In this document: in pieces, positions 2,048 to 61,225 of the stretch
Layout of the letters: each line of letters begins with the position of its first letter
Numbering within the stretch: the stretch's first letter is position 1
Source: Candidatus Pyrohabitans jungbluthii
GTDB lineage: Archaea > Hydrothermarchaeota > Hydrothermarchaeia > Hydrothermarchaeales > BMS3B
DNA: 64,000 nucleotides
Assembly (NCBI GenBank): GCA_002010065.2
Contig: MTMD02000005.1
Coordinates: forward strand, 1-64,000
Direction of reading: 5' to 3'
Notes under the pieces: model-generated
What the model was told of the DNA's origin: nothing
Seen by the model: only the letters and a program-made list of their open reading frames with translations
Databases searched by the model: none
Made by a program: the position numbers and the translations under genes

Positions 2048-3073
2048 TCACTTCCTCAGCACCACTATCTTCCTTACCAGGCTGCGGTGCACCCTCTCAA
2101 AGTGCACCTCCTCTATGCTAAAGCCCGCACTGCTCGCGTAGCCCTCGATATCCAGGTTGCTCGGACCAATCACGCACGCGTACCTTCGTGGGATGAGCAT
2201 GCGGTAAATCGAACTCAACGACTCTTGATAAAGCCTCTCCAGGCTTAAACCTTTTGTGCTGGCGCTTATTCCATACGGCGGGTCGCACGCTATGGCGTGG
2301 AAGTGCTCCGGATAGCGCTCCCACAGCGCTCGCGCATCTCCCTTCGCGAGGTGGTATCGCTCTACCCCATAGTGGCGCAGGTTAACCTCAGCGCCGCGGA
2401 GAAACTCCTCCTCCAGATCAAAACCGTAGACCTCAGCGCCCACAAAGCTTGCTTCGATGAGTATCCCGCCGGTACCGCAGAATGGGTCTGCGAAACGCTC
2501 ACCCTCACGAACCCTAGTTAAGTTAACCACCGCCCTCGCCAAGCGCGGCAGCAGCACGCCGGGGCGGAAGTACGGCCTCAGGTGAGGGCGCCTCTCCTCG
2601 TATGCGCCGCGATCTACGCGCTCCAGAACGCGGGTCAAGTAGAACCTATCAGTGATTATGCCCGCAATCACATTGGCTGGCGCGGAGAGGTTCACCTTTT
2701 TACCCCGCGACGCTATAACTGCGCCTATCTCCCTTTCCAGCTTTTCGGTAGATAGGTGCTCTGCATGGTGCCTGACCCTGTGCACCCGCACGGCGAAGCT
2801 CCCCTCAAAGGCATAGTCCACGCTTCTCGCGTTGGAAAGCACCTCTCCCGCGTCGGCTTTGCAGGAGAAGTAAAGCTCCCCGAAGAAGTGGGCCATCGCC
2901 ACGCGCTTTGCAGCCTGAGCTATCGCCCCAGCTGGGAAATCACCCTCGAGCACCAGAACCTGCTCAGCCTGCTCCACAACCTCAAACCTCAAGCCGAGGG
3001 CTTCAAAAGCTGCAAGCACCTCGCTCCGAGGCAGCGTCGGGTGCTCACCTGAAAGAAAAACCAGAAGCTTCAT
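2048..3073 (-). CDS. trm11: tRNA (guanine(10)-N2)-methyltransferase, THUMP plus methyltransferase domain
   Basis: LSGEHP N-terminus, DPFCGTGG, DPPYG. Confidence 0.85.
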   Translation of the reverse strand: MKLLVFLSGEHPTLPRSEVLAAFEALGLRFEVVEQAEQVLVLEGDFPAGAIAQAAKRVAMAHFFGELYFSCKADAGEVLSNARSVDYAFEGSFAVRVHRVRHHAEHLSTEKLEREIGAVIASRGKKVNLSAPANVIAGIITDRFYLTRVLERVDRGAYEERRPHLRPYFRPGVLLPRLARAVVNLTRVREGERFADPFCGTGGILIEASFVGAEVYGFDLEEEFLRGAEVNLRHYGVERYHLAKGDARALWERYPEHFHAIACDPPYGISASTKGLSLERLYQESLSSIYRMLIPRRYACVIGPSNLDIEGYASSAGFSIEEVHFERVHRSLVRKIVVLRK

Positions 3074-3080
3074 ATCGCCG

Positions 3081-3944
3081 CTACCTGAGCGCCTCCGCTA
3101 TGCGCGACGCCACTGAAATAAAACTTATCTGTGAGGGTATTGTATTGGTGCCCACCACCTCTTTTGCTCCTGCTGCGAATAGCCTCGCAATGGCGCTCCC
3201 AGTAGCCACAGCATGAACGCAGCCCACGTAGATGTTCGCTGCCCCCTGCGCTTTCAGCATCTTTATCGCTTCCACCATTGAGCCGCCCGAGTCTATTATA
3301 TCGTCCACAATTATTGCATTCATCCCCTGAACATTCAGATTCTTGGGCTTCACCACCACCTCTCCCGGACCGAGGCGGGTTTTCTCAAGGTAATCGTGCT
3401 CGCATCCCAGGCGTGCTGCAACTTTCTCAGCCATGGCAAGGGCGCCCTTGTCCGGGCTTATAACAACGCAGTCGTCTATCCCGCGACGGCGGAAGTACTC
3501 CCCCAGGTCAGGCGAGGCGTCTATCTCATTAGCTTCTATGGTAAAGTAGTCCAATATTGCGCTCTTGTGCAGGTTTATACCTATGAACCTGTCGGCATGC
3601 ATAGAGATGTGCTTCGCAAGTACGCGAGAGGTTACAGCCTCACCTTGAGTGAAACTCCTGTCCTGCCTCGCATAGGCGAAGTATGGTACCACCGCCGTTA
3701 TCCTTGCAGCGCCCTCCTCGCGCAGGGTTTCCAGCAGGGCGAGGAGTTCAAATATGTTTCTGTTCTGCGGGCGAGGTGTTGACTGTACCACCACACACTC
3801 TTCGTTAGCGACCTCGCTCTCTATGCGCAGGTACAGCTCGCCGTCAGGAAAAACCTTGCAGGTTATGCTCGCCAGCTCGGCATCAAGCTCACTCGCCACC
3901 TCCTTTGCCAGAACCTGGGAAGCTGTGCCTGGGATAACAATCAC
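3081..3944 (-). CDS. prs: Ribose-phosphate pyrophosphokinase
   Basis: FPDGE, PYFAYARQD, SPDKGA, VDDIIDSGGS; probable GTG start after GGAGG. Confidence 0.93.
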   Translation of the reverse strand: MIVIPGTASQVLAKEVASELDAELASITCKVFPDGELYLRIESEVANEECVVVQSTPRPQNRNIFELLALLETLREEGAARITAVVPYFAYARQDRSFTQGEAVTSRVLAKHISMHADRFIGINLHKSAILDYFTIEANEIDASPDLGEYFRRRGIDDCVVISPDKGALAMAEKVAARLGCEHDYLEKTRLGPGEVVVKPKNLNVQGMNAIIVDDIIDSGGSMVEAIKMLKAQGAANIYVGCVHAVATGSAIARLFAAGAKEVVGTNTIPSQISFISVASRIAEALR

Positions 3945-16094: not shown

Positions 16095-17042
16095 TCACTC
16101 CACAATTACCCTCGCCTCTCCTCCCGGCGGAACCTCAGGAAAGACCACATAAAGCTTGCTACTATCAGGGTCGCGCCACGATTCTACGGCACCTTTCGCA
16201 GCTCTTGCATCTACGACTGCGGTTGCGCCCTTTACCGGCTTAGAGGCGTGATTGCGCAGGATTAAAGTGTTGCCCTCAACGGTAAGCTCGAGATTCTTCC
16301 TGAGTCTCCACCACTCTGCAAGCTCTCTCGCGGAGGGGAACCACACCCTGCGCTCCTTCATGTAGTCCAGAAAAGATGTGAAGTTCTGCAGGTTGCGGGA
16401 GGCGGTATCCACGTGTGTCAGTAGGGTAAAAACTTCGCCTGCGTCGTAGGCGCGCTGAAAAGCTAAGTAGGTTGGCAAGAGAGTAAAGCTCATCTTCTCC
16501 TCATCCCAGAAGGCATCGAAGTTCATGCTTATAGGAATCTCAAGCACGCCTTCCACTTCATAGGGTTCAAAGCCATAAAAGAGAGAGGAGTCATAGGCAT
16601 AGCCCATCTCTGCCACAAGGGGAAGTGTAGCCCTGGTTGCATTGAGGTAGGGTGCCCTAAAGCCGCGAACCTCGTAGCCATGCTGCTCAAACCAGGAGTG
16701 CGCCCTAATAATCTGCTGCCTCCTCTCCTCTTCTGAGGCATGAGCCCACTCTGGCTGACTCCATGCCATGCTCGCCACCTCAAAGCTTCTCAGCGGTGTG
16801 AGTACCTCACTTTTACCTTGGAAGTACCCCGCCACCACGAAAAAGGTGGCATTTATCCCCCGCTCCTGGAGCGCCGCTGCTATAGCCTCAAGCTCACCCT
16901 CGCGGACAACCTCGGTGTCGAAGGTAACAACCGCCGCAGCTTTATAACCATAAGGGTACTTGGAAAGGTGGGCTTCCCGCTGAGGCTGAGTGAAGCAGGC
17001 TGAAAAGAGTGCCAGCAGGAGCAGCAGATGGGTAATCTTCAT
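16095..17042 (-). CDS. Exported polysaccharide deacetylase (CE4-like) lipoprotein
   Basis: Lipobox-like LFSAC, TFD, ATFFVV, GFRAPYL, YDSS. Confidence 0.75.
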   Translation of the reverse strand: MKITHLLLLLALFSACFTQPQREAHLSKYPYGYKAAAVVTFDTEVVREGELEAIAAALQERGINATFFVVAGYFQGKSEVLTPLRSFEVASMAWSQPEWAHASEEERRQQIIRAHSWFEQHGYEVRGFRAPYLNATRATLPLVAEMGYAYDSSLFYGFEPYEVEGVLEIPISMNFDAFWDEEKMSFTLLPTYLAFQRAYDAGEVFTLLTHVDTASRNLQNFTSFLDYMKERRVWFPSARELAEWWRLRKNLELTVEGNTLILRNHASKPVKGATAVVDARAAKGAVESWRDPDSSKLYVVFPEVPPGGEARVIVE

Positions 17043-17359
17043 TTTAACCCTGGTATTAACTGCTTCTTTCCTCAGTAATAAGCTTTCGCAAAAGAAGGGA
17101 ATAGGGAGGAGGTGGGGGGAGGGGGAACCCATGAGTCGTATAAAAGAAGCTAAACGCCTCATGGGTTCAACATAAATTATAAATTTTACGTCTCAAAACA
17201 TTATTATAAAAGAATTTAGCCCAGAAAATAATTAAATTAATTAATTAGCATTGAGCATATATAAGCAAAATAGCTACTCTTTAATTGTATTATTTAAAAC
17301 CAACAACGTTAAATGTTTTAAATTAAATTTTAACAATTGTGGAATTGATTAAAATTGGT

Positions 17360-18388
17360 TCAACCATTTTCTGCTTCTCGTATCGCCCTGACAGTCCTCT
17401 TGAGCACAAGTTGTGCAGCCTCCTGAGATGGCCAGCTTCCGAGACCGCAGTCGGGGCCTGCGAAGAGCATCCGCTCGCCGAACCTCCCCTTGAGTCTCAG
17501 GTAGATTGCCTTAATCTCATCCACGCTGTCGGCGAGCTGCTCTGGAGTTGGGTGCTTAATCCCGCGCTCCACAAAGCTACCCAACTTCCTGTCTATGCTG
17601 GTGCTCGCCACGCCTCCGCGCAGAAACTTGTCGCTGCTCTCCAACTCGCGCTTTGATATAAAGTTTATGTTTTCCGGCGAAGAGGCAAACTCGCCCGTGA
17701 GAATATGTATCCCATTAGCTTCCAGCGGATACTCTGCAGCCTTAAGGGTGTGCAGGTGTATCTGCACCTTCGCGTTAATCCCGCGTACGCTCTCCTCTAG
17801 AGCCCTGATTATCCCCTCCTTTTCTATGTTCAGGAGGTCTACGAAACCCAAGCTTGGTTCGTCTATGCTCACCACCTCGGTTACCACGTGCTTCGTATTG
17901 AGCAGAGAGTTCCTCAGGAAGGCATTAACACTTCTGGCCATGTTCATAAGAACCTCTTCATAGACGTTGAAGCCGAAGGGCGTCTTGAGGTAGAGCTCAA
18001 TTGCTCCGGTTACGCACACGCGGAGGCGCAGTCTCTCGCCCCGCTCTTCATAATAGCGCTCCGCCTCCCTCTCAACCACATAAAGCTCTGGGATAACCGC
18101 GTATTTCTCTTCGATAAGGAAGGGCTCCCGCTGGTATCTTTCAATGGGCTCCATGAACTGGCGGTGCATGTCAAAGTGCTGCGGGTAGGTTACCACGTCC
18201 AGCTGAGCCTCAAGCTTTGCTCTCAGCGAGGAGCTTACGGCGCTGTAAAAGGGCTTTAGCCTGGGTTCCTCCTCAAGGCGTTTTCCTTCTGCGAAAGCAG
18301 CGAGGGCGTCGAGGTAAACCCCGTTAAACTCCTCCCGGCTCACGCTAGCGGGTAAAGGAAAGCTGCCTATGTCGTCTATTATGACCAT
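17360..18388 (-). CDS. Core (single-barrel) cobalamin-independent-type methionine synthase
   Basis: DDIGSFP, YPQ, VTGA, SIDEPSLG, IHLH, GPDCGLG; real start ATG at 18388. Confidence 0.75.
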   Translation of the reverse strand: MVIIDDIGSFPLPASVSREEFNGVYLDALAAFAEGKRLEEEPRLKPFYSAVSSSLRAKLEAQLDVVTYPQHFDMHRQFMEPIERYQREPFLIEEKYAVIPELYVVEREAERYYEERGERLRLRVCVTGAIELYLKTPFGFNVYEEVLMNMARSVNAFLRNSLLNTKHVVTEVVSIDEPSLGFVDLLNIEKEGIIRALEESVRGINAKVQIHLHTLKAAEYPLEANGIHILTGEFASSPENINFISKRELESSDKFLRGGVASTSIDRKLGSFVERGIKHPTPEQLADSVDEIKAIYLRLKGRFGERMLFAGPDCGLGSWPSQEAAQLVLKRTVRAIREAENG

Positions 18389-18950: not shown

Positions 18951-19001
18951 ACCCAAGGCTGACCCACGCGGGATGATATTCGTCTGGAGCGCTGAGGAAC
19001 C
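18933..19001 (+). ncRNA. Box C/D guide sRNA
   Basis: Terminal stem GGTTCC/GGAACC, box C ATGATGA 18940-18946, D' CTGA 18959-18962, C' GGATGA 18971-18976, D CTGA 18992-18995. Confidence 0.8.
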
Positions 19002-19027
19002 ATACAGAAATTTAAACCTATGGTTGC

Positions 19028-19124
19028 AGGAGGTCTCGCCAGTTCCTACGGAACTGACTTCGACTTCCTCACCGACGTTCGGAAAGTAATAGGAACCCGC
19101 AGGTGGTTCCTATTTTGGGAGGTG
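19028..19124 (+). promoter_or_regulatory. Structured multi-hairpin leader upstream of the CBS gene
   Basis: Stems AGGAGG/CTTCCT, CAGTTCC/GGAACTG, CCGA/TCGG and AATAGGAACC/GGTTCCTATT directly before SD GGAGGTG. Confidence 0.5.
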
Positions 19125-19129
19125 TTTAG

Positions 19130-19531
19130 GTGAGAGCGGGTGATATAATGAATCGCAAGGTGGTTACCGTTTCTCCCCACGCCAGCGTGAGGGAGGCGGC
19201 TCGTTTGATGAGGGAGCACAACATCGGCACCCTCGTGGTGGTGGACGATGGGTACCCGGTGGGGATAATTACTGAGCGCGATCTTGCCACGCGCGTTGTG
19301 GCACTAGATTTGAGCGGAGATACCCCTGTGGAGGATGTGATGAGCACTCAACTTATCACTGTGAGTGAGTCTACGAGCATTGAGAATGTGCTGGACACAA
19401 TGCAGAAGCATGGTTTCAGAAGGCTACCCGTGCTGAAAGACGGCAAACTTGTGGGCATTCTTACTCTTCGCGACATCCTTAGCGCCAGAAAGCTGGATAG
19501 GCAGGTGCTTAAGAAAATTATAAGGGTGTAG
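19130..19531 (+). CDS. CBS-domain pair protein
   Basis: Two CBS repeats: GIITERD, RRLPV..GKLVGIL. Confidence 0.92.
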   Translation: MRAGDIMNRKVVTVSPHASVREAARLMREHNIGTLVVVDDGYPVGIITERDLATRVVALDLSGDTPVEDVMSTQLITVSESTSIENVLDTMQKHGFRRLPVLKDGKLVGILTLRDILSARKLDRQVLKKIIRV

Positions 19532-19635
19532 CTTCGTCACCCGCAGCTATGCTGCAGGTAACTGCGCTAACTTTTCTGTTAATTTTTATTTGGTCAGGAA
19601 AGTATGAAAATTCCTGCTTTTATCATTTGTATATT

Positions 19636-19653
19636 TGTAAAATTAATTTTACA
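19636..19653. promoter_or_regulatory. Perfect 18-bp palindrome, putative operator
   Basis: TGTAAAATTAATTTTACA upstream of the DUF4870 gene. Confidence 0.45.
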
Positions 19654-19753
19654 TTCTGGAGGACGTAAAAATGTAAGCAAACGCGCCTTTATTCTAAGAA
19701 AGCGAAAACATTATATCCCACCATTCTAAAAGCTATAAAAGGAGGTGGAAGGA

Positions 19754-20104
19754 ATGGGTGAGAAGACAAGCACAGGTTTAGACGAGAATATCGCAGGTTT
19801 GCTCTGCTACCTTTTGGGCGTTATAACCGGAATTATCTTCTATGTGATCGAAAAGGAGAATAAATTTGTCAGATTCCATGCGATGCAGAGCATTGTCGTG
19901 TTTGGGTCGATATTGATTATAAATTGGGTGGTCATTCCTATAGTGATGATGATTCCAATTTTGGGCTGGGTGATTGGCATGCTGCTCGGCCTTGTGGTAT
20001 TCATAGTTTCAATAGTGCTGTGGGTACTGCTGATGTACAAGGCTTATAAGGGAGAGAAATACAAGGTGCCATTCGCAGGAGATTTTGCAGAGAAGTATGT
20101 GTGA
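19754..20104 (+). CDS. DUF4870-family membrane protein
   Basis: GLDENIAGLLCY, FVRFHAMQS, KAYKGE.YKVP. Confidence 0.88.
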   Translation: MGEKTSTGLDENIAGLLCYLLGVITGIIFYVIEKENKFVRFHAMQSIVVFGSILIINWVVIPIVMMIPILGWVIGMLLGLVVFIVSIVLWVLLMYKAYKGEKYKVPFAGDFAEKYV

Positions 20105-33107: not shown

Positions 33108-33168
33108 CTATATTAGTTTTAGGTCAGAATCAGTTAGCAGCATTGCTCCTCCTTCTAATGGAGTAAAA

Positions 33169-33254
33169 TGGTAATGGTTCACGGATATACGAAGCTCTGA
33201 GCGCAGCGAAGGGTTTTGGGTGAGCAATAGCCAACCGCATAGTTGCTGTTAGGT
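33169..33254 (-). repeat. attC-like site 2 with degenerate R' box
   Basis: Minus strand ACCTAAC (contains the stop codon)..TATGCG..CGTATA..ATTACCA; resembles site 1. Confidence 0.6.
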
Positions 33255-35147
33255 GACGTAATCATTATATATCTTATTTAATAATTCAGCCGTTTCTTTA
33301 TCTTCACAGATAATGTAAGTACCTTTTATTCCTCTTGTCAAAAATATCCTATATCTATTCTTTAAAAGAAACAGCGCTTTTTCTTTTGCTTCTTTGTTTC
33401 CATTTTTCGCCTGAGAGAATAAATCTTTTAAACTTGGCTTTCCAATATTATCTTCACAATTGTCTCCGACTTCCCATTTGTTGTTTCTAATAACATAATC
33501 TCTGCCCCAAATTATGCCAGCATAATCAGTTTCAAAGCCTTGGCATCCGTAAATCGAGGCACATTTGTCAAGTTTGTTGGATTCCCCTCGTACCCAAAAA
33601 GGAACATAGTCCCTTTTAGGATCCATCAACCAATAAATTTTTTTGTTAAAATTTTTATAGATGTTTAAACCGGAGTAAAGTGGGTATCCTATTCTTAAAT
33701 TTTTTATTGAAGAATGATTTTGAAAATCTCCTGGCGATTCTGTAAATGCTGCGATTAATGCAACTTTATTGTTTATTGCTTTGCTTTTCAGTGCATTATA
33801 CATTTCATCAAAATCTGTAAATACCCTAAAATCATAGTTTTTCTTCCATGGGTCCACTAAGTCTTTGTTAATATTCACGGGACCAGTGATTAATTTTTCT
33901 ACAAAAGCATGATAAGTCTCGCCGCCCTGAACCCTGTAAAATCCTTTCAGATACCTTTCTTTTACATACTTCCCTTGTTTTTGTGCTTCGTATTTAAAGT
34001 TTTCCGTAGTTCCTTCTTCTTCAGCATTAAGAATTTGTCCTTCATCGTAGAAAAAGACTGTAATTCTTCCTCTTTGAACAGCATAGGTAATGTTTCTTTT
34101 GGTCATTCTTTGTGCCTCGTCATAAATTACAAGATCAAAGCTTCCATTAAAATTTTGTTCTGCAACTCCTCTAAATCTAGCTCTGGGTCCTACTGAATAA
34201 AATTTAATTGGGTTTGATAAGCCTCTTTGTATAGAATCAAAAATCTCTCTTATAGAGTTTATCAATCTATTATTGCGATAAGCTAAAATTGTTTGATATT
34301 TTAAAGAAAGAGCGGAAAGCATAAGATGAATAGCAACTAAAGTTTTCCCGGAACCTGGAGCTCCTTGTACCAAATAAATAATATCTTTTTTACCATTTCT
34401 TAAGTCTGCAATTATCTCTTCTATGAGCTTTAATTGTTCCTCCGATAATCCCCATCCATTTTGTGCTAAAGTTTCATAGCTTCTTTGTTTTATTTCCTCA
34501 AAGTGGTTTTTTATTGAATCAAAAAGTTGTTTGTTCTGAATATAAGTGCCATTTAAAAATTTTTCAATTGTCTTATTATCCAGTGATGTTTTTAAACAAC
34601 CTATTATAAATCGTTGGAATTGAACAGTATCATTTTTAAAGAAAACATTACCATTAAAGTTGATATTAATATTGTTTTTATCAGCATTGTAAAATAATAC
34701 ACATCCTGAAAAGTTAAAATTTTTAGATTCTGAATGAGAAAATCTCAATTTACCTATGTAATTTTCCAACTGATATTCAGGATGACTTGAAATTCCTATA
34801 TTACTCCGAACCAAAAAGTCTGTTACCTTATTAGCAAATGTCCATCCTTTCAACTCCGCAACAATAACCGCGGGATTACCATTACTATTAGCACCAAATA
34901 TCAATAAATCAATACGTTCATTACTAAAAGGCAAACGATATTCAAAGGTTACATCAAAATCAAGTAAGTTTTGATTGTTAAACACTTGTTTGAGGTATGC
35001 AATTGAAGATTTCCAAGCATTAATTTGTTGTATATCGGCATCCTCTCCATAAACATTCCAAAATCCATTTTTAAATGTACTCAACAAGTCATCATCATTT
35101 TTTTGTATAAAATCTCTTATTTTACCAACATATATTTGATTTTTCAT
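33249..35147 (-). CDS. DUF2075 / Schlafen group 3-like helicase with N-terminal PD-(D/E)XK-like domain
   Basis: FEY..RIDLL..ELKGW; GAPGSGKT; DEAQR; SIY.CQGFE.DY.G; NRYRIFLTRG. Confidence 0.88.
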   Translation of the reverse strand: MKNQIYVGKIRDFIQKNDDDLLSTFKNGFWNVYGEDADIQQINAWKSSIAYLKQVFNNQNLLDFDVTFEYRLPFSNERIDLLIFGANSNGNPAVIVAELKGWTFANKVTDFLVRSNIGISSHPEYQLENYIGKLRFSHSESKNFNFSGCVLFYNADKNNININFNGNVFFKNDTVQFQRFIIGCLKTSLDNKTIEKFLNGTYIQNKQLFDSIKNHFEEIKQRSYETLAQNGWGLSEEQLKLIEEIIADLRNGKKDIIYLVQGAPGSGKTLVAIHLMLSALSLKYQTILAYRNNRLINSIREIFDSIQRGLSNPIKFYSVGPRARFRGVAEQNFNGSFDLVIYDEAQRMTKRNITYAVQRGRITVFFYDEGQILNAEEEGTTENFKYEAQKQGKYVKERYLKGFYRVQGGETYHAFVEKLITGPVNINKDLVDPWKKNYDFRVFTDFDEMYNALKSKAINNKVALIAAFTESPGDFQNHSSIKNLRIGYPLYSGLNIYKNFNKKIYWLMDPKRDYVPFWVRGESNKLDKCASIYGCQGFETDYAGIIWGRDYVIRNNKWEVGDNCEDNIGKPSLKDLFSQAKNGNKEAKEKALFLLKNRYRIFLTRGIKGTYIICEDKETAELLNKIYNDYVT

Positions 35148-35170
35148 TTCCTATTCCCCCAGATTATGTT

Positions 35171-35254
35171 GCCTAACATTCCGGGGATATGTGAAGTTCG
35201 CCCGATAGGGCAAATTTTGGTGAGTGATAGCGAACCACATACTCACTGTTGTCC
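35171..35254 (-). repeat. attC-like site 1
   Basis: Minus strand GGACAAC..TATGTG..CACATA..GTTAGGC, then RBS and ATG of the next gene; 84 bp. Confidence 0.7.
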
Positions 35255-35319
35255 GAGTGCGTTGACACCGAAGCGAAGCGGAGAGTTCGGCTCGATGGTG
35301 ATATGTCTATCAATCTACA

Positions 35320-36999
35320 TCATTTTAACTCTTCCTGTAGTGGAAAAACATTTTGGTCTTCAATAAAATCTTGCTTTATCTCATTTATAAATTCTGGAAT
35401 GTAATCGGGGAACTCATCAATAATCTTCTTAACAATATATCTATGTTTTTGAGCTTTTCTCAAACCCAACTCTTCAGATTCTCTTTTAAACTCCTCATAT
35501 CTATTATTAAGCCCGTTACTTTGGCAGTATTTCTCGAAATCCATTTTTGTTGCTGTCTCAAAGTTATTGTTAAATATTAACAATTTCTGCCCAAATCTGC
35601 CGTTTATGAGCTTAAATACTTTGCTATCTTCGATTTTTTCAATATTGTCAACTGAAATATCAAAACATTCTGCAATAGTTTCATTGTTTCTTTTATTTGA
35701 AGATTTATCTATATCATTATCAAAAACAACTAACATTGGAATATTAAATTTGTAGAACAATCTCCAATATTTTGGTATCTGAGGCTTCCCTACAACCCCT
35801 ATGACAGATATGCCTCTTTTATTTATATCAATCCCTGCTTTAGTTAATAAAAGAGGAAAGCATAATTCTTCTGTATCTCCTTCAACTAATATAATTTTCT
35901 TTGCAAAAAATGCTTCTTTTAACCTTTCGTTGGATGTAAGAGCATAAAAGTCGGTGATGTTTTCTACTGTAGATTTCCCTGCGGCACCAGTTTCATTTGA
36001 AAATTTGACTAAATCATTTTTAGAAACTTGTATTATCTTTGTACCTTTTTCTTTTGTTTTGTAAACAAGAGCTATATTTTCAAAATGCTCTGTTTCAATA
36101 AATGTTGATGAATGGGTCGTAATCATTATTTGTATATTTGAATTTCTAACTATTTCTTTGAAAATTTTAAGCAAGTGTCTTCTTGCTTGTGGATGCATAT
36201 AAATTTCAGGTTCTTCAATGATCAACAAACCTTGAGCTTCATTTTTAAAATTTTTGGCATAAGCTCTCAATAGAGAGAGAATAATAAGGTTTCTGCTACC
36301 TTCACCTAATTCTTCAATATCAATATCGTAATCATCACCCAAGATTTTATCATTTGTAAGGATGTTAATGGTTTTGAAGTAATTTAATGGAGAAAACGGC
36401 TTGAAATCAACTTTTAATTTATATGATGAATCTGCTTGCATTTCCTCAAATAATACGCAGAAATCTTCTTTAAATTGTTTAAATTCGTCAATTTTTTCTA
36501 GAATTTCCATAACTTCGTTAAATTTACTTTCTAATTCTTCTGTTAAATTTCTTTTTCTAACGAGTTTATTAAATGAGTGCGCAATTTTCCCCATCAAAGC
36601 CCATTTATTAAATGAAAGTGTTTGAGGAATACCTCTTTCAGCTGAAAGATAATTACAAGGGAAGTCTTCTTTTATATTGCTCTGATTTGACCTAATTGGA
36701 TTTCCATTTTCATCAAAGTATTTAGGCCAGCCTTTTTGGCTGTTAAATTCAACTCTTCTGCCATTATCAAACTTAATGGTTATTTCAATTGGATTGTTAG
36801 TATTCCTCATATAAAAATCTATTGAATCAATATTTTTACCCCACCATCCTTCTCCTAAAATATTATTAATAGCTCTAACTATATTCGATTTACCAGCATT
36901 ATTAGCTCCAACTAAAACCATCAGTCCGCTCTCGGGAAACCAGAATTCTAAATCTTTAATTGAACGAAAGTTTTTTATATGAACTTTTTTAATTTTCAT
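35320..36999 (-). CDS. OLD-family ATP-dependent nuclease (ABC ATPase plus TOPRIM, GajA-like)
   Basis: NFRSI, GANNAGKS, IEEPE.YMHPQ, TTHS, LVEGDTE, FDND. Confidence 0.9.
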   Translation of the reverse strand: MKIKKVHIKNFRSIKDLEFWFPESGLMVLVGANNAGKSNIVRAINNILGEGWWGKNIDSIDFYMRNTNNPIEITIKFDNGRRVEFNSQKGWPKYFDENGNPIRSNQSNIKEDFPCNYLSAERGIPQTLSFNKWALMGKIAHSFNKLVRKRNLTEELESKFNEVMEILEKIDEFKQFKEDFCVLFEEMQADSSYKLKVDFKPFSPLNYFKTINILTNDKILGDDYDIDIEELGEGSRNLIILSLLRAYAKNFKNEAQGLLIIEEPEIYMHPQARRHLLKIFKEIVRNSNIQIMITTHSSTFIETEHFENIALVYKTKEKGTKIIQVSKNDLVKFSNETGAAGKSTVENITDFYALTSNERLKEAFFAKKIILVEGDTEELCFPLLLTKAGIDINKRGISVIGVVGKPQIPKYWRLFYKFNIPMLVVFDNDIDKSSNKRNNETIAECFDISVDNIEKIEDSKVFKLINGRFGQKLLIFNNNFETATKMDFEKYCQSNGLNNRYEEFKRESEELGLRKAQKHRYIVKKIIDEFPDYIPEFINEIKQDFIEDQNVFPLQEELK

Positions 37000-37230
37000 G
37001 GCTAAACCCCCCGTTCAGGATGATTTTCTTCATCTCTTCAAGTTGAGTTATTTGGTTCTGGATTTTCTCATTTAGGGTTTTGATTTTTTCATAAACACCG
37101 TCAAGGTAATTTGCTATTTCTTTTTGCTTTTCAAGGTTTATTTGGTTGTTGTGGAAGGGGGATTTTTACTAATAAAAGCTTTTTATTGGATATTCCAATC
37201 TGCCCGATCCATTTTGTAGCTTCCTTCCTA
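36989..37230 (-). pseudogene. hsdS: Frameshifted 3' remnant of a type I restriction-modification specificity subunit
   Basis: ..VKIPLP / PFHNNQINLEKQKEIANYLD..LEEMKKIILNGGF* in two frames; its stop overlaps the OLD start. Confidence 0.7.
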
Positions 37231-37294
37231 CCACCTCCCGACATCCGAATTTAATGACTTTTGATATCACTTAAATCTTTCGCAGTGGTTTGGG

Positions 37295-38131
37295 TCAAAA
37301 GCCGCCGAATAGACTGTAAACCTCAGCCAAAAGCCACACCAGCAGCGCCGCGAAGAATACTGCGGGAAGCGCCGGGTAGGCTTTTTTAGCACTCTTCAGT
37401 GTGAAGCGCAGGAAGACGAGCATGGCTATGGCAGCTGAGAAGATAGCGGCGATTCCCCAGGCTAAGCCAAGCTCTGCGTAGCTCGCCGCAGCCACGGAGG
37501 AGGCGAAGAGCAGGTCGCCGAAGCCCAGAACAAGGCGATTTTCATCAGCAACGCCCACATCCACCCCGAAGGGTACGCCCGCTTTTTCTAACTGAGACGC
37601 AAGCTTGGGTATGGCTTGCTTTCTTAGTACATAGTAGTAGTCCAGCATGGCAAGCAGAGCCAAGCCGAGCACAAGCGCCCCGAGGCTGAGGTAGCTTGCC
37701 AGCGTGGCACCCGCTACGCCAGAGAAGCAAACGAGCTGCAGATTTCTCATCCACGGTTTAAGCTTTTTGGGAGCGGCAAAGGGCAGGAGCAGGGCTACAA
37801 GCAACACCAACAGGAAGAGAAGGCTCGGCGCAGGAAGTAGCGCCTCAAGCATTGAGAGCAGTATGAGGATTATTAGAGCGTAGCTGAAGTAGGCTGAGGC
37901 GAGAACCGCAAACTTGACCATTTTCAAGAATGCGCGAGAGCGGAAGAGGATGAGGTAGAGGTTAAGCGCAAGGATGAAGAGCACAGGCATGGCAAGAGCA
38001 TAGCCGAAGCCAGCATTCGCCTGCGTCTCCGCCTCGCCCACGCTGGGAGTGAGGAGGAGCTCATGCTGGTACAGCAGCGCTGCAGCGCCGGAGAGAAGGA
38101 GGAAGAATATTATGAGCGCTTCGCTTCTCAT
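37295..38131 (-). CDS. Presenilin/SPP-like GxGD intramembrane aspartyl protease
   Basis: Multiple TM helices, MLDY, LGFGD, PALP. Confidence 0.75.
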   Translation of the reverse strand: MRSEALIIFFLLLSGAAALLYQHELLLTPSVGEAETQANAGFGYALAMPVLFILALNLYLILFRSRAFLKMVKFAVLASAYFSYALIILILLSMLEALLPAPSLLFLLVLLVALLLPFAAPKKLKPWMRNLQLVCFSGVAGATLASYLSLGALVLGLALLAMLDYYYVLRKQAIPKLASQLEKAGVPFGVDVGVADENRLVLGFGDLLFASSVAAASYAELGLAWGIAAIFSAAIAMLVFLRFTLKSAKKAYPALPAVFFAALLVWLLAEVYSLFGGF

Positions 38132-49176: not shown

Positions 49177-50268
49177 CTACTTCGCCACCCCTGTCTTCTC
49201 TAGGCATATCTCAAAGTCCTTCTTGCTTGGGTTCTGATCCTCTAAGATGGTGTAGCGTGAGGGTCTTATGTTCTTCGCGTACATCAGCGCTTCCAGCATC
49301 TGCTTCTTTGTGAGACCTATCTCCCTAGCGGTAGTGGGGGCAAGGATCTTCTCTAGGGAGTACTTCAGAAGCTCCCAGTCACCCTCGCCATAGTAGTGCT
49401 GATGCATGTACTCCATAATTATCGTGCCTATCCCCACCTGCTCCCCGTGGGTGCCCCTCCCGTAACCCAAGTAATCTAATGCGTGGCTGAACTTGTGGGC
49501 AGAGCCGGAGACCGGGCGAGAGGTGCCATACATGTTTATGGCGAGCCCGCCGAGGATAAGCCCCCTCACCAGAAGCTTGAGATACTTGGCGTCCCTGAAG
49601 TCCAGCTCATCTGCGCTCTTAAGCAGAAGCATCGCAGGCATGGAGGAGATACTCGCCACTATTTCGTCGTAGTCCTCGTCTATCTTCTCCACCCCGAGAA
49701 GCCAGTCCTTCACCTCCACCAAATTGGAGATCAAATCCCCATAGCCTGAGCGGAGGAGTCTGACAGGGCTGTTCCTGATAATCTCCAGGTCGGCGATAAT
49801 GGACACAGGAGAGGCGGCTTTGATTGAGATTGGCATCCCTTTCTCCTTGAAGCTCGCCAGGGGTGAAGCTATGCCGTCATGGGCGGCGTTGGTGGGAATA
49901 CTTATAAGCAGAGCGTTTGAGTGGAAGGCCACCACCTTCGCTACGTCAAGCACCTTGCCTCCGCCCACCCCTAATACGGCGTCATACTCGCCAAGGTCGC
50001 CTCTAATCTCCTGCTCAATTTTTTTCGCAGTTACCCTTGAGGCGGTTTTAACAATAAATTTCTTGGATTTACACTCGTCGCTGGTGCAGATAAGCTCCTC
50101 CACCTTCTTACCAGCGATTTCATTTGTCCTGGGTCCAGTTACAATTACCACATTTCTCAAATCATACCTGCCAACCAGCTTTGAAACATGGTTTAAGGCT
50201 TCTCTGTGTATCCTTACATCCACGGGCAGGAGTATCTGCTTGAAGTGTTTCAATATCATGGCCATCAC
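49177..50268 (-). CDS. egsA: sn-glycerol-1-phosphate dehydrogenase
   Basis: GGGKVLDVAK, PTNAAHDGIASP, SGSAHKFSHALD, HGEQV. Confidence 0.9.
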   Translation of the reverse strand: MMAMILKHFKQILLPVDVRIHREALNHVSKLVGRYDLRNVVIVTGPRTNEIAGKKVEELICTSDECKSKKFIVKTASRVTAKKIEQEIRGDLGEYDAVLGVGGGKVLDVAKVVAFHSNALLISIPTNAAHDGIASPLASFKEKGMPISIKAASPVSIIADLEIIRNSPVRLLRSGYGDLISNLVEVKDWLLGVEKIDEDYDEIVASISSMPAMLLLKSADELDFRDAKYLKLLVRGLILGGLAINMYGTSRPVSGSAHKFSHALDYLGYGRGTHGEQVGIGTIIMEYMHQHYYGEGDWELLKYSLEKILAPTTAREIGLTKKQMLEALMYAKNIRPSRYTILEDQNPSKKDFEICLEKTGVAK

Positions 50269-50831
50269 ATCTGTCTCATTGAATAAATCATCCTGTGGAA
50301 AGCTGTAAGGAATCCGAGGGCAGCGAGGAAGACCAGGAGGTAGTACACCTCACCTATAAGCAAACCTATTATTATGGCCAGGATTCTGAAGTCCCTCGTG
50401 GCTATTCCAACTTTACATTCCGCGCCAACTGCTTCGGCCATTATCCTGGTCACGCTAACCAGGAAGGTACCCACAATCGCTAGGCTTCCAGCCAGCCAGT
50501 ACTCCGCGGGGTTAAAGGCGATCAGAGCGATTATTAAAGCTGCGTCTACAAATCTGTCCAGCACCCTGTCAAGGTAAGCTCCCTTCTTTGTTACCCTGCT
50601 GGAGAGCCTCGCCAGGTCGCCGTCGGTGCAGTCCAGAATCTGAGATACCAGAAGCACCACCACGCCTGCGATTATGCTCTGAGTGGCTATAAGGTAGGCG
50701 GCGTAGAATCCCAGGAGTGTTGCTATAATAGTTACCATGTTCGGTGTCAGTGGCGTTCGCATCAGCAGCTTTGCAATGGGTATAGAAAATCGCCTGTAAA
50801 TGTAGTGAGTAAGTGGATATTTCAACTCCAT
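50265..50831 (-). CDS. CDP-alcohol phosphotransferase
   Basis: TPNMVT, DCTDGDLAR..GAYLDRVLD. Confidence 0.92.
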   Translation of the reverse strand: MELKYPLTHYIYRRFSIPIAKLLMRTPLTPNMVTIIATLLGFYAAYLIATQSIIAGVVVLLVSQILDCTDGDLARLSSRVTKKGAYLDRVLDRFVDAALIIALIAFNPAEYWLAGSLAIVGTFLVSVTRIMAEAVGAECKVGIATRDFRILAIIIGLLIGEVYYLLVFLAALGFLTAFHRMIYSMRQM

Positions 50832-50999
50832 TTTAAACGACCTGATAATCCCTTTTTAAGTATTTTTTATTGTAACTCAGCCTTACTGCATAAATTCCCA
50901 CCAAAGGCTGATTAAGCAAATCCCACCTCTCTTTTGATAGAATTTTAATCACAAGAAATATTATTGTAGTTCAATATTGTCATTTAGAGGGGTAAAACG

Positions 51000-51752
51000 A
51001 TGAAGGCGGTTATCCTTGCAGCGGGCATGGGTAGCAGGCTTGGTGAGTTTACCAGAGATAAACCAAAGACTCTGCTGCTGGTGAGAGGCAAGCCGCTGAT
51101 ATTCCACATCTTGGGGAGCCTCTCCACTAATGGGATAGAAGAAGTGATAATAATAACTGGCTACGAAGATGAAAAGATTAGAGAGGAGGTGAGAGACGGC
51201 TCTGCGTGGGGACTAAAGGTAAGATACGTTAACAACCCCCGCTATGATTCAACAAACAATATCTACAGCCTTCGCCTGGCGGAGAAGGAGGTGGCATCAC
51301 AGGGATTTTTGATTGTGAATTCGGACGTCTTCTTTCATCCCGAGATTTTAAGGAGGCTTCTTGAGGCTAAAAATAGTGGGATTACCCTTATGGTGGATGT
51401 TGAAAAGAGTCTGGGGGAAGAGGAGATGAAGGTAGTAGCCCGGGAGGAGCGTATTACAGATATCGGGAAGGGGCTACTCCCCAGAGATGCGGATGGGGAA
51501 TATATAGGTCTTGCGCGTATTGATTCTGAGTTTACCTCCATATTTTTTGATGCTATTAAGGAAGTGCTACGCGACCAGGGGGCAGGGGTTTTCTACGAGG
51601 AGGCTTTTAAAAGACTTATAGAGAAGGGTTTCCCAATAAAATACAGCACGACCGGTGGGTATCCATGGATAGAGATTGACACCCCACAGGACCTGAGAAC
51701 TGCCGAGGCTGACATAGCACCAGAGATAGAAAAGGGGCGTGTTGACCTATAA
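51000..51752 (+). CDS. Sugar/polyol-phosphate cytidylyltransferase (IPCT/LicC-like)
   Basis: ILAAGMGSRL, PK, NN.YSL, EEEMKV, WIEIDT..DL. Confidence 0.85.
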   Translation: MKAVILAAGMGSRLGEFTRDKPKTLLLVRGKPLIFHILGSLSTNGIEEVIIITGYEDEKIREEVRDGSAWGLKVRYVNNPRYDSTNNIYSLRLAEKEVASQGFLIVNSDVFFHPEILRRLLEAKNSGITLMVDVEKSLGEEEMKVVAREERITDIGKGLLPRDADGEYIGLARIDSEFTSIFFDAIKEVLRDQGAGVFYEEAFKRLIEKGFPIKYSTTGGYPWIEIDTPQDLRTAEADIAPEIEKGRVDL

Positions 51753-51827
51753 GATTCCTATAAGGGCTAAATCTTCGAGATACGCCCTTTCAAAGCTTTT
51801 ATTATATGGACAATCAACACGATTTAC

Positions 51828-52000
51828 ATGCTGAGGAGATTTTTCATTCTTCTGCTTCTAGTAGGTGCTGTGCATGCCCAAGAAGTGCGCTTCTCTGGGT
51901 GGAGTATCATCACGAAGTTTGCGCTTAGCTTCTATAACCCTGTAAGGGGGTGAGTTCTCTCCATAGGCGGCGATAGTTATGTGGTAGCGAGGAGTAAAAG
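51828..52000 (+). pseudogene. Internally deleted remnant of a paralog of the downstream CGP-CTERM gene
   Basis: Signal peptide MLRRFFILLLLVGAVHA, FALSFYNP vs FVLSFYDP downstream, in-frame TGA at 51951. Confidence 0.5.
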
Positions 52001-58251: not shown

Positions 58252-59453
58252 CGGCGGCTGCGCAGCCTAATCGCTAAAGCTAGGAGTAGTACTGCAAGCA
58301 CTGCAAAAATCGCCAGGTTCTGTTTGCTTCTATCATCCCCGCTCCTCTCCCAGTCCTCTAAGAAAAGTTTCTCGAAATAGCGCGCTGGCGAGCCGTAGAT
58401 TATCACATTCACCTCGCGGTTCTTCTTGGGCGAGTGCTCATTCCAGTTCATGCTTCCCAGCATCACAGCTTTGCCGTCGACCACCATGCCCTTGAGGTGG
58501 TACTTCTTGATTTTGTTATTTGTCTTAGCGAGGCGTGCCTCAAGCGGGAGGTTCTCTCTCTGCGCGATCTCATTCACATAGCGAACGGTGCGCAGGTTGC
58601 TCCTAGGGTCATCTTCCTTCACATGGTACCAGGTGGAGTCCAGAAGTATCTTTACCTCCACACCACGACGAGCCGCATTTATCGCCTCCTCTAGGAAGAG
58701 ATTGGGCGTTGTAGCAGGCGAGCCCTCCTTTGTTTTGCCCCAGTAGGTGTATATGTAGAATTGCTCTATGTAGATAGAGCGGTTCGCACTTCTAAGCAGG
58801 GCAAGCGTGGCGTCTATCGCATTCTCAGGGGCAATAACCGCAACCACAGGGAAATTGCCCATGAAGCTCCTTCCGGTAAAGCGGGCTTTCGTCTCGCTCA
58901 TGGCTAAGTCAGCGCCTTCCTTGCCTTGGTATCTCACGCTTTGCCTGAGGTCTGCGAAGAAAATCTCTGCGAGAAATCTTGATAGCTCCTCGCTTGCAAG
59001 GATAGCGCCCCACCCACGGTTGCCCTTCCCATACACTGGAAACCCGCTGTCACCAAAATTTTCAGTGGTTATCAGAACGCTTGCATTGTCTGCAATGGCG
59101 TACTTAGCATGGTTAAACCTCAGCTTGCCGTCGTAAAGATAGACCTCTGCCCCATTCGCGGCAAGCGTGCTGAGAAGCATGCGCTCCTTCTCCGGCATAC
59201 CTCCGGCTGGTGCCTTGTCAACCATAACCACGACCTGGGTGCCCTCTTCAAGTTCCCTGAGCAGCGCCCCCGCTATCTCTTCGCTGGTGAATGTGTAAAC
59301 GTTAATATAGAGCGAGGTGTTTGAAGAGTCTATGAAGCTGGTAAGTGTGGCAAGCGCTGACTCTGGCGAGGAGAATGCTGTAACCTGTGTGGCGGTGAAT
59401 TCCGTTGAGTATGCGCATGGGAGCAGGAGTAGTATGAGGAGTATGTATCTCAT
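58248..59453 (-). CDS. Exported phospholipase D-superfamily protein
   Basis: Two HxKxxxxD motifs (HAKYAIAD, HLKGMVVD), GSMNW, signal peptide, C-terminal TM helix. Confidence 0.88.
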   Translation of the reverse strand: MRYILLILLLLPCAYSTEFTATQVTAFSSPESALATLTSFIDSSNTSLYINVYTFTSEEIAGALLRELEEGTQVVVMVDKAPAGGMPEKERMLLSTLAANGAEVYLYDGKLRFNHAKYAIADNASVLITTENFGDSGFPVYGKGNRGWGAILASEELSRFLAEIFFADLRQSVRYQGKEGADLAMSETKARFTGRSFMGNFPVVAVIAPENAIDATLALLRSANRSIYIEQFYIYTYWGKTKEGSPATTPNLFLEEAINAARRGVEVKILLDSTWYHVKEDDPRSNLRTVRYVNEIAQRENLPLEARLAKTNNKIKKYHLKGMVVDGKAVMLGSMNWNEHSPKKNREVNVIIYGSPARYFEKLFLEDWERSGDDRSKQNLAIFAVLAVLLLALAIRLRSRR

Positions 59454-59542
59454 TGTCTAAAGTATTTCAATACTCGATAAAAAGGTTCACCCATCAAAAG
59501 AATTAAAAATTTTGACGCCTATATAAGAGAAGGTTGCCCCGC

Positions 59543-61225
59543 ATGAAAGATGCGAACTTTAAGCTCTGGAAAGATGTTGTAGAAAACCTGGATGAGGCTG
59601 TGCATGTAATCAACAGAGATTTTAAGATAGTCCTCGCCAACCGTAGGCTCGCTGAACTTGTGGGTCTGCAGAAGGAGGAAATAACAGGAAAGAAGCTTTT
59701 TGAGCTTTTTCCTGCAGAGAAGGGGGTTGAGAGGGAGTACTTAGAGGTTTTTAACTCGGGAGAGGGATTGCGAACCACCGAAAGAATGGTATTTGGAGGT
59801 AAAGAGTACTACATGAGGACAACAAAGCTCCCTCTTGACCTGAAGGGTGAGAGGCTTGTTTTAACAATTATTCGCGATGTAACTGATGAAGAACTCGCCA
59901 AAAAGGAAATATTGAAACTTAAAAACTTTAGTGATAGTATTTTTGAGAGTATATCCACTGGAATAATGGTCCTCGACAGAGATTTTAAGATAAGGGCTAT
60001 GAATGCATACCAAGTGGAGCACATGCGCAGGTTTGGAAAGCTTAATATAAATCGTGAGGAGGTAATCGGGAAGCATTTCAGTGAGATAAGCACGCTGCTA
60101 GAGGAGGAGCATCGCGGCGAAAGCTTCAGGGAGCTTTTCAGACGTGTGCTGGAGCAAGGCGAGGTTATAAAGATTTACAACCATGAGCATCGCTCAAAGG
60201 CAGGGGCTACAGTTTATCTAAACTTTACGCTTCAGCCCTTGAGAGGAGCAGGCGGTGAAATAGAGGGGGTAGTACTTCTCAGTGAGGATGCCACCGAAAA
60301 AGCTATGCTGGAGCAGGAGGTTGAGCAGAGCAGGGACTTTCTCAAGAGAATACTTGAAAGCCTAGGTCAGGGTGTCGTCGTTGTAGACCGGGAATTCAGG
60401 ATTTTAATGTGCAATACAGCCTACACTGAGATGGCTGGGCTAAGCAGGGAAGAGATTATTGGAAAGAAGTGTTATGAGGTTGCTCACCTCCGGCAATGGT
60501 CATGCGCAGAGGAAAGGGAACTCTGTCCTGCTGTTGAGGTTTTTTCAACCGGAAAGCCCGTAAAGGTTGTGCATGAGCATCGCAGAAAAGACGGGAGTAG
60601 CTATTACGCTGAGGTAAACGCGTATCCTCTGAGAAACGATAGGGGTGAAGTGGTTCAGGTTATAGAGATGGTAAACGACATAACAGAGAGATACGAGCTT
60701 GAAAAGAAGCTGAGGGAGACGAGGGACTTCCTTAACAATATTGTAAAAAGCTCCGGGGATGCAATAGTAGCAACCGACTTGGAGGGCAGGATAACCTTCT
60801 GGAGCCAGGGAGCAGAGAATTTGTTTGGCTACAAAGCGAAGGAAATGCTGGGTGGGAGCATATACGACCTATATCCTGAGGAGTTTAAGGTTAAGAGGAA
60901 GAGAATGGAGGAGTTCCTCCTAGAGTATCCTGAAAATGCAATAAGAAACTACAGGATGAAGATTTACAAAAAGGACGGTAAACTTGTGGATATAAGCCTC
61001 TCCCTTTCTCTGCTAAAGGATGCAAAGGGCGAGCCCATCGGCATGGTTGGTATATCCAAAGATATAACCAGAGAAGTTAAGGCTGAAGAGGAACTGAAGC
61101 GAAAGATACGTGAGCTTGAGGACTTCTACAACATGGCGATTGGAAGGGAAATAAAGATGATAGAACTCAAAAATGAGATTGAGAGGCTGCGTGAGGAGAT
61201 TCGCAGGTTGCGAGGCGAAGCGTGA
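59543..61225 (+). CDS. Multi-PAS sensor protein without a kinase domain
   Basis: Four PAS/PAC repeats ending DVT, DAT, DIT, DIT; C-terminal coiled coil. Confidence 0.85.

Follow-up and report, generated by a model that had tools for sequence, protein, structure and literature searches.

According to Ghaly et al. 2022 (PMC9668308), integrons and clusters of attC sites lacking an integrase (CALINs) are present in nine archaeal phyla, and integrons are found in 3-4% of the 'Hydrothermoarchaeota' genomes; in that study, a cluster is defined by at least two attC sites less than 4 kb apart, and attC sites are described as shared across domains. A full-text literature search for Hydrothermarchaeota together with integron retrieved no other relevant paper. 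The locus described here belongs to Candidatus Pyrohabitans jungbluthii, a member of the Hydrothermarchaeota, and lies within a stretch of 64,000 nucleotides (the window; positions 1 to 64,000 of contig MTMD02000005.1, assembly GCA_002010065.2). The host genome matches the archaeal SSU model with 1527.7 bits, and the named relatives closest to its DapF protein are those of Candidatus Pyrohabitans (78% identity) and of Hydrothermarchaeota metagenome-assembled genomes. The locus includes two sites, S1 and S2, that flank a gene encoding a DUF2075 helicase, with a gene for an OLD-family nuclease on the other side of S1. With a probability of about 80%, S1 and S2 are eroded members of a family of integron-type (attC-like) sites that, together with the two genes bounded by them, make up a two-site CALIN in an archaeal chromosome.

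The S1/S2 cluster belongs to a kind of element that is already known in archaea, namely the CALINs. Several features of the site family resemble those of attC: the ends are inverted and in most members approach the RYYYAAC (R'') / GTTRRRY (R') type, the sequence between them forms an imperfect hairpin, probably on the bottom strand, each site is located directly 3' of a co-oriented open reading frame (ORF) with a stop codon in R'', and the ends are those of circular cassettes. As in CALINs, the window contains two sites less than 4 kb apart (2.0 kb, start to start) and no integrase. In contrast to attC sites, the branched inner structure of the family is conserved throughout the phylum, the helix that closes a cassette reaches about 16 bp, the unpaired spacers are asymmetric, and no extrahelical bases were identified. 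The CALIN definition (two or more attC sites separated by less than 4 kb, with intI missing from the vicinity) covers the locus only if the sites are counted as attC; the locus is not a complete integron, given that there is no IntI in the host genome (denoted G000) and no site-like sequence at the left junction of the insert.

Chromosomal integrons of bacteria carry anti-phage defence cassettes, as described in a 2024 preprint (bioRxiv 10.1101/2024.07.02.601686). Similarly to the sedentary chromosomal integrons, the present locus contains compact candidate defence genes, and related arrays contain restriction-modification and toxin-antitoxin pairs. Unlike these integrons, it resides in an archaeal host and has two sites only and no integrase, and its defence role is predicted from the genes.

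Sites S1 and S2 and the related site family

Read on the minus strand, the locus consists of the 559-aa ORF of the OLD-family nuclease, a GC-richer spacer with S1, the 632-aa ORF of the helicase, S2, an 11-codon mini-ORF and the end of a convergent ABC-ATPase gene. S1 (35171-35254, minus strand) extends from R'' GGACAAC (35254-35248) through TATGTG...CACATA to R' GTTAGGC (35177-35171) and is followed on its 3' side by a purine-rich stretch resembling a ribosome-binding site (RBS) and by the ATG codon at 35147. S2 (33169-33254, minus strand), the site of the helicase cassette, extends from R'' ACCTAAC (33254-33248) through TATGCG...CGTATA to a degenerate R', ATTACCA (33175-33169). The envelopes of the covariance-model matches are 35158-35269 for S1 and 33156-33269 for S2. 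All the features of the two sites that were quoted in the original prediction, which had been made from the sequence alone, are present on the minus strand, including the stop codon of the helicase gene within R'' of S2 (TAA at 33251-33249). The two sites can be aligned end to end, and their GC content is 49-50%. S1 terminates the OLD-bearing unit and also provides the G that precedes the helicase cassette.

That attC-type sites flank the helicase gene is borne out by a leave-out covariance model, R3, built from 48 sites (one row is a reverse-strand duplicate), none of which comes from this locus or from the orthologous locus of G007, another genome of the same genus. A search of the whole window with filters off identifies S1 with 63.9 bits (E 2.2e-13) and S2 with 45.4 bits (E 8.9e-9), and no third match at E≤1 in the 64 kb. 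In G007, the same model detects one site, G7a, and misses the other one, G7b, at E≤1. A fuller family model applied to the whole host genome matches S1 and S2 only; in the 30-40 kb part of the window, the family model finds no third site, the next-best match being located at the left junction (13.1 bits, E 0.16). These covariance models were built in this analysis and are distinct from the curated IntegronFinder attC model.

The family comprises at least 50 members, each about 85-95 nt long. A search of 38 species genomes of the host phylum with model R1, for which 8 sites, S1 and S2 among them, were used, yields matches in 21 genomes at E≤0.1 and in 15 genomes at E≤1e-3 (as tallied from the table of matches), and in 7 of the 38 genomes two or more sites lie on one strand within 4 kb of each other. 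Both the 15 genomes with strong sites and the 7 with clusters exceed the published prevalence of 3-4%, a comparison between data sets and detection methods that differ. In the bacterial order that includes Desulfothermus okinawensis, the family is rare, being detected in 2 of the 81 sampled genomes by a search with stricter filters. The proposal that bacterial-style cassettes had been captured at this locus holds for the helicase cassette, which is also found in bacteria (see below), but not for the sites, which are common in the archaeal phylum and rare in this order, the only bacterial one that was sampled.

The structure of the family was analyzed using an alignment of 40 sites that includes 37 of the 42 sites found and 3 sites from Aminicenantes and Thermoplasmatota loci; five sites were dropped before pair counting, namely one that is truncated at the end of its contig and four that either contain long indels or score lowest. 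The elements follow each other in the order TAAC, 1-2 nt, one arm of an 11-bp stem, hairpin 1, CCCAAA, hairpin 2, ACTT, the other arm of the stem, 5-6 nt, GTTA, with TAAC of R'' present in 35 and GTTA of R' in 33 of the 40 sites. The fraction of paired cells is 81.4% compared to 69.6 +/- 0.9 in shuffles, and the number of compensatory cells is 140 compared to 66 +/- 8; none of the 500 shuffles reaches either value, although such statistics overstate independence because the sites are akin, a weakness that does not affect the control with slid registers, in which 19-43% of the cells pair. Changes on both sides are observed in 11 of the 11 stem pairs and in 4 of the 4 pairs of hairpin 2, and 83.8% of the stem cells are paired. 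RNAalifold applied to the family alignment recovered only a small inner hairpin, and the long-range stems were then set by hand and checked by pair counting. The L boxes of the original prediction hold up as the inner 6 bp of the 11-bp stem, which starts 1-2 nt after TAAC, whereas the shared core that it described is to be redrawn as two inner hairpins and the CCCAAA motif.

Among the stem mismatches read on the top strand, A·C occurs in 32 cells and G·T in 12, an excess that places the wobble pairs on the bottom strand. These patterns of substitution indicate that the bottom strand would be the one that folds. The median z of bottom-strand folding across the family is -2.0, and many members reach -15 to -25 kcal/mol.

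A small extra hairpin with a TAAC-like loop, located just 5' of R'' (35255-35269, minus strand, in S1), is shared by a subfamily of sites and looks like a duplicated R''-like motif. A short peptide-like match shared by S1 and G7a in one reading frame was considered as a coding remnant, and this interpretation was dropped given the covarying DNA structure and the larger family.

Cassette organization, cargo genes and strain variation

Arrays of these sites in other genomes of the phylum show how the sites relate to genes. In G018, five sites each come after one ORF, or two paired ORFs, of the same orientation; the arrays of G012 and G006 are organized alike. The cargo of the arrays, which includes an MNT-HepT toxin-antitoxin pair, a CfrBI restriction-modification pair (a methyltransferase and a CfrBI-type endonuclease) and unknowns, is typical of integrons; a GH130 enzyme is encoded there as well. 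The genes for the MNT nucleotidyltransferase and the HepT ribonuclease overlap (L211 11269-12170) and form one two-gene cassette with a single end site.

The cassette boundaries carry a further signal, detected by comparing two 16-nt stretches, namely the beginning of a cassette, starting at the G of the R' that precedes it, and the stretch that ends at R'' of the site terminating the same cassette. For 16 pairs of consecutive sites, such cognate ends form on average 10.3 Watson-Crick pairs out of 16, compared to 7.66 +/- 2.06 for non-cognate pairs (n=2636) and 7.1 for the two ends of the same site; at least 12 Watson-Crick pairs are found in 6 of the 16 cognate comparisons and in 2.5% of the non-cognate ones. 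In the window, the first 16 nt of the helicase cassette (35162-35177, minus strand), which represent the 5' arm of this closing helix, match the left arm of S2 (33248-33263, minus strand), which consists of the last helicase codons and R'', with 13 Watson-Crick pairs and 3 A·C pairs that correspond to G·T on the bottom strand, so that all 16 of the 16 positions pair on the bottom strand. The cognate complementarity is readily interpreted as the trace of a circular cassette opened at R'.

The helicase cassette (33175-35176, minus strand) spans about 2.0 kb, from the TT of R' of S1 to the first base of R' of S2, with a GC content of 31%. It encodes a 632-aa helicase of the DUF2075 / Schlafen-group-3 type (33249-35147, minus strand; Pfam PF09848, 232.5 bits). 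A comparison with the PADLOC models identifies similarity to PDC-S41 (107.8 bits, residues 1-302), Nhi (51.6) and AbiO (44.1). The domain content and these matches make the protein a candidate for single-gene antiviral defence. None of the other 37 phylum genomes contains the gene; its best relatives show 66% identity, and relatives are spread over many phyla.

The first locus scan, with the single helicase protein as the query, yielded no confirmed relative. With an alignment of relatives, 73 helicase loci were collected, and in five of these the gene carries cassette ends. A 5' start GTTAGG... combined with a stop codon inside CCTAAC is found in L024, L025 and L027, from Gracilibacteria, Aminicenantes and Bacteroidales metagenome-assembled genomes (MAGs); the equivalent ends in a Thermoplasmatota MAG (L028) are GTTATC and GCTAAC, and in Desulfothermus okinawensis (L086) only the 3' end of the cassette is on the contig. 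Homologous helicase cassettes with TAAC/GTTA-type ends are thus present in four bacterial genomes and one other archaeal genome. The site of the Bacteroidales cassette is a hairpin of 54 bp in which GCCTAAC and GTTATCT enclose a perfect 10-bp stem. For the 80 helicase loci from metagenomes, the nhmmer search for family sites is negative at E≤1, and cassette ends are missing from the five closest relatives.

The second gene (35320-36999, minus strand) encodes a 559-aa OLD-family nuclease that combines an ABC-type ATPase with a TOPRIM domain (Pfam AAA_15, 141.2 bits; OLD-like_TOPRIM, 76.5 bits). In the rest of the phylum, the only homologue is a 34%-identical match in G035. As in Gabija, an OLD-family ATPase-TOPRIM nuclease is encoded directly upstream of a superfamily-1 helicase-like gene; unlike in Gabija, the helicase is of the DUF2075 rather than the UvrD type, and a recombination site separates the two genes. 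Identity with Gabija was rejected given that the nuclease scores higher with the PADLOC model Old (189 bits) than with the GajA models (at most 140 bits), that the helicase has no GajB match, and that an OLD homologue is found next to the helicase gene in 0 of the 73 helicase loci. Because of this last result, OLD and helicase are treated as separate cargo, not as a conserved pair or a Gabija-like system. Both genes are likely to be independent antiviral defence cargo.

On its upstream side, the start of the OLD gene is overlapped by the end of an open frame of 58 codons that has no start codon (36992-37165, minus strand), a remnant of an upstream donor gene. A possible resemblance of this frame to the C-terminal end of the type I restriction S subunit (hsdS) found no support in Pfam, where only sub-threshold, unrelated matches were obtained.

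Compared to the genome G010 of the same genus, in which the two flanking genes are separated by about 160 nt and thus represent an empty site, the locus contains an AT-rich insert (33108-37309), delimited by blastn synteny, with GC content of 29-37% as opposed to 50-59% in the flanks. The genome G007, also of the same genus, retains both flanks at about 92% identity, and between these has a different AT-rich ORF of 192 aa followed by the sites G7a and G7b; relative to G007, the differing part of the insert is 33216-37221. The inserts of G007 and G000 show no homology outside the sites and the flanks, and the 3' half of S2 is about 79% identical to G7b (counted by hand). In the other two genomes of the genus the contigs end at the locus, so that these are uninformative. 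The variability of the locus among genomes of the same genus, which include one with an empty site and one with another ORF and two sites, supports the mobile-cassette reading.

Some smaller features of the locus and of the window were also recorded. An 11-codon mini-ORF with a strong RBS directly follows S2 (33108-33143, minus strand), and its counterpart in G007 (L019 1528-1563) differs by one residue; the mini-ORF could be what is left of an earlier cassette or of a chromosomal gene. The empty site of G010 (L017, about 1340-1500) holds an ORF of about 20 codons, the start of which may resemble the N-terminus of HicB-type antitoxins. Other patches of lower GC content (0.45-0.47) in the window, at 17001-18000, 19001-20000, 50001-52000 and 59001-61000, contain no family site.

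Recombinases and the weighing of the explanations

The absence of an integrase noted in the original prediction extends from the insert, which contains no integrase gene, to the complete host genome: in this 99.95%-complete assembly, the best match to the integron integrase model TIGR02249 has 26.8 bits compared to the cut-off of 265. The only clear tyrosine recombinase of the host consists of 402 aa and is of a type common in the phylum. The sole integron integrase above the curated cut-off was found in D. okinawensis (326.9 bits; locus L233, G042:C43, about 2745-3588), the genome of which also contains 4 family sites scoring from 80.3 to 43.8 bits, although none of these is within the first 9 kb of the integrase contig. 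Within the phylum, a different protein is encoded near arrays. In G012, an intact 349-aa XerA/IntI-like tyrosine recombinase is encoded upstream of the array and co-oriented with it (L212, G012:C32, 4538-5587, minus strand), and in G018 a recombinase of this kind has the same placement but is frameshifted into two frames (L211, G018:C10, 2763-3780, plus strand). The G012 protein matches IntI4 (2A3V) with 161 bits and XerA with 150 bits, and NCBIfam assigns it to XerA_Arch (237.6 bits, above the cut-off of 220); opposite the 60-residue segment that includes the integron-specific domain it has 20 residues and so is about 40 residues short there. Of the 7 genomes that encode this recombinase class, 3 have strong sites, as do 12 of the 31 that lack it (our own tally); at the genome level, the class is not associated with the sites.

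Under the preferred CALIN reading, a tyrosine recombinase of the integron-integrase type would excise cassettes as circles and integrate these through recombination of the folded bottom strand at G|TT. Both the OLD-nuclease unit, which is AT-rich, and the cassette of the DUF2075 helicase would have arrived by cassette insertion or by recombination with an array already present at the locus. The sites would since have been drifting because the genome has no integrase, and S2 is probably no longer able to recombine, the first base of its R' having changed from G to A.

The erosion is apparent in both sites, each of which has one good and one mutated end. In S1, R'' GGACAAC fits RYYYAAC at 5 of 7 positions (CAAC in place of TAAC) and R' GTTAGGC fits GTTRRRY at 7 of 7, whereas in S2, R'' ACCTAAC fits at 7 of 7 and R' ATTACCA at 3 of 7 (ATTA in place of GTTA). 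In the 11-bp stem, 8 positions of S1 and 6 of S2 form Watson-Crick pairs; of the remaining positions, S1 has one each of G·T, A·C and another combination, and S2 has two G·T, two A·C and one other. The minimum free energy of the bottom strand is -9.2 kcal/mol for S1 (z -0.4) and -7.9 kcal/mol for S2 (z -0.3), and the stem is missing from the minimum-energy fold of S2. The decay that had been proposed for site 2 is evident from its R', stem and fold; S1, which was not named in this connection, is likewise eroded.

Several results weigh against the CALIN reading. S1 and S2 both fail a relaxed finder of R''/L/R' motifs, the 4 matches of which in the window are at chance level (0-6 in 10 shuffles), and a strict RYYYAAC/GTTRRRY finder has zero matches anywhere, the textbook-like site of L027 included. 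The bottom-strand folding check suggested in the original prediction went against it: as single-stranded DNA, S1 and S2 fold no better than shuffles on either strand (z -0.6 to +0.6), and with their weak hairpins both are among the weakest folders of the family. This result, which was first read as evidence against attC, is attributed here to the erosion of these two copies. The geometry of the family is itself non-canonical, with an unpaired 5' spacer of 1-2 nt, an unpaired 3' spacer of 5-6 nt and no extrahelical bases identified, and the relatedness of the sites mentioned above tempers the shuffle statistics. The OLD unit is irregular in that it has kept no cognate 5' start (none for the left arm of S1 is found within the window), opens with a gene remnant and has no att-like site at its left junction. 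Finally, an integron integrase above the TIGR02249 cut-off is found in 0 of the 38 genomes of the phylum, and that of D. okinawensis is interrupted by an in-frame TAA and is on a different contig from the family sites. Sequence similarity searches within the 1.99-Mb host genome are also uninformative at the level of the single site: BLAST finds no further copy and misses even the link between S1 and S2, the first nhmmer profile finds no further copy either, and Rfam scans, in which the curated attC model is not included, give no relevant match. The motifs by themselves are insufficient for the claim; it is the evidence from the family that gives S1 and S2 their significance.

The lack of an integron integrase in the phylum could also mean that the sites belong to a separate archaeal recombination system that resembles integrons and is operated by a short XerA-like recombinase without the integron-integrase-specific domain. 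The position of such a recombinase upstream of the arrays of G012 (intact) and G018 (frameshifted), in the same orientation, and the assignment of the G012 protein, which lacks most of the integron-specific segment, to XerA_Arch are compatible with this possibility, though IntI4 is a slightly better match to this protein than XerA. However, the proximity to arrays is seen in two genomes only and has no counterpart in a genome-level association, G028 and G029 have the recombinase but no sites, and a bacterium with a classical integron integrase, D. okinawensis, carries the same site family. Such a distinct system therefore seems unlikely.

It is far less probable that the repeats have nothing to do with cassette recombination and represent some other structured element between genes, such as a miniature inverted-repeat transposable element (MITE) or repetitive extragenic palindrome (REP), or an RNA element, i.e., a terminator or a 3'-UTR structure. 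The family repeats resemble REP and MITE in being short, structured, GC-richer and intergenic, and their location at the 3' ends of co-oriented genes, the conserved stems and the conserved CCCAAA motif would suit an RNA, an undescribed one given the lack of Rfam matches. An RNA, however, would not account for wobble-compatible mismatches that favour the antisense (bottom) strand, and unlike REP and MITE the family sites are oriented with respect to genes, bound exchangeable units and show cognate complementarity with cassette starts. The TAAC/GTTA ends obey the logic of circular cassettes, and copies of the helicase gene in bacteria bear unrelated short hairpin sites with the same ends in the same position. 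The original prediction had named a dispersed REP or MITE among the outcomes that would refute it and called for a search for further copies; the outcome, only two copies in the genome and both in one variable locus, is not that of a dispersed repeat. Direct repeats around one foreign gene might, in principle, be the attL and attR of a single integrated helicase element, or else a chance likeness of ordinary promoter and terminator regions, which could be prompted by the RBS and ATG after each site and by TATA-like motifs seen by eye in the 3' parts of the sites; these ideas can hardly be sustained, given that S1 and S2 are too divergent for BLAST, that the family has more than 50 members, some in arrays, that the insert contains no integrase gene, and that the leave-out E-values rule out chance. 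A promoter reading based on the TATA-like motifs was rejected as it leaves the conserved structure unexplained.

Beyond the CALIN reading itself, a more far-reaching proposal can be formulated, which we regard as speculative and rather doubtful. The phylum would possess a homogeneous, structurally distinct attC-like family, far commoner than the published 3-4% and served by the short XerA-like recombinase without the integron-specific domain; the turnover of cassettes between sister strains without that recombinase would imply action in trans or recombination between sites, and some of the bacterial copies would be archaeal exports.

Implications for archaeal cassettes

If the CALIN reading is correct, the locus is a clear and well-bounded case of cassette-mediated gene transfer across domains, and candidate antiviral genes are added to the known content of archaeal cassette arrays. 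What the locus adds to the elements already described is the tested structure of the site family, the evidence of the closing helix and the variation at the level of strains. The family as defined here, with its structure, bottom-strand signature and closing helix, could help to detect archaeal cassettes that are missed when motifs are read by themselves, and the identity of the recombinase that acts on the family sites becomes directly testable.

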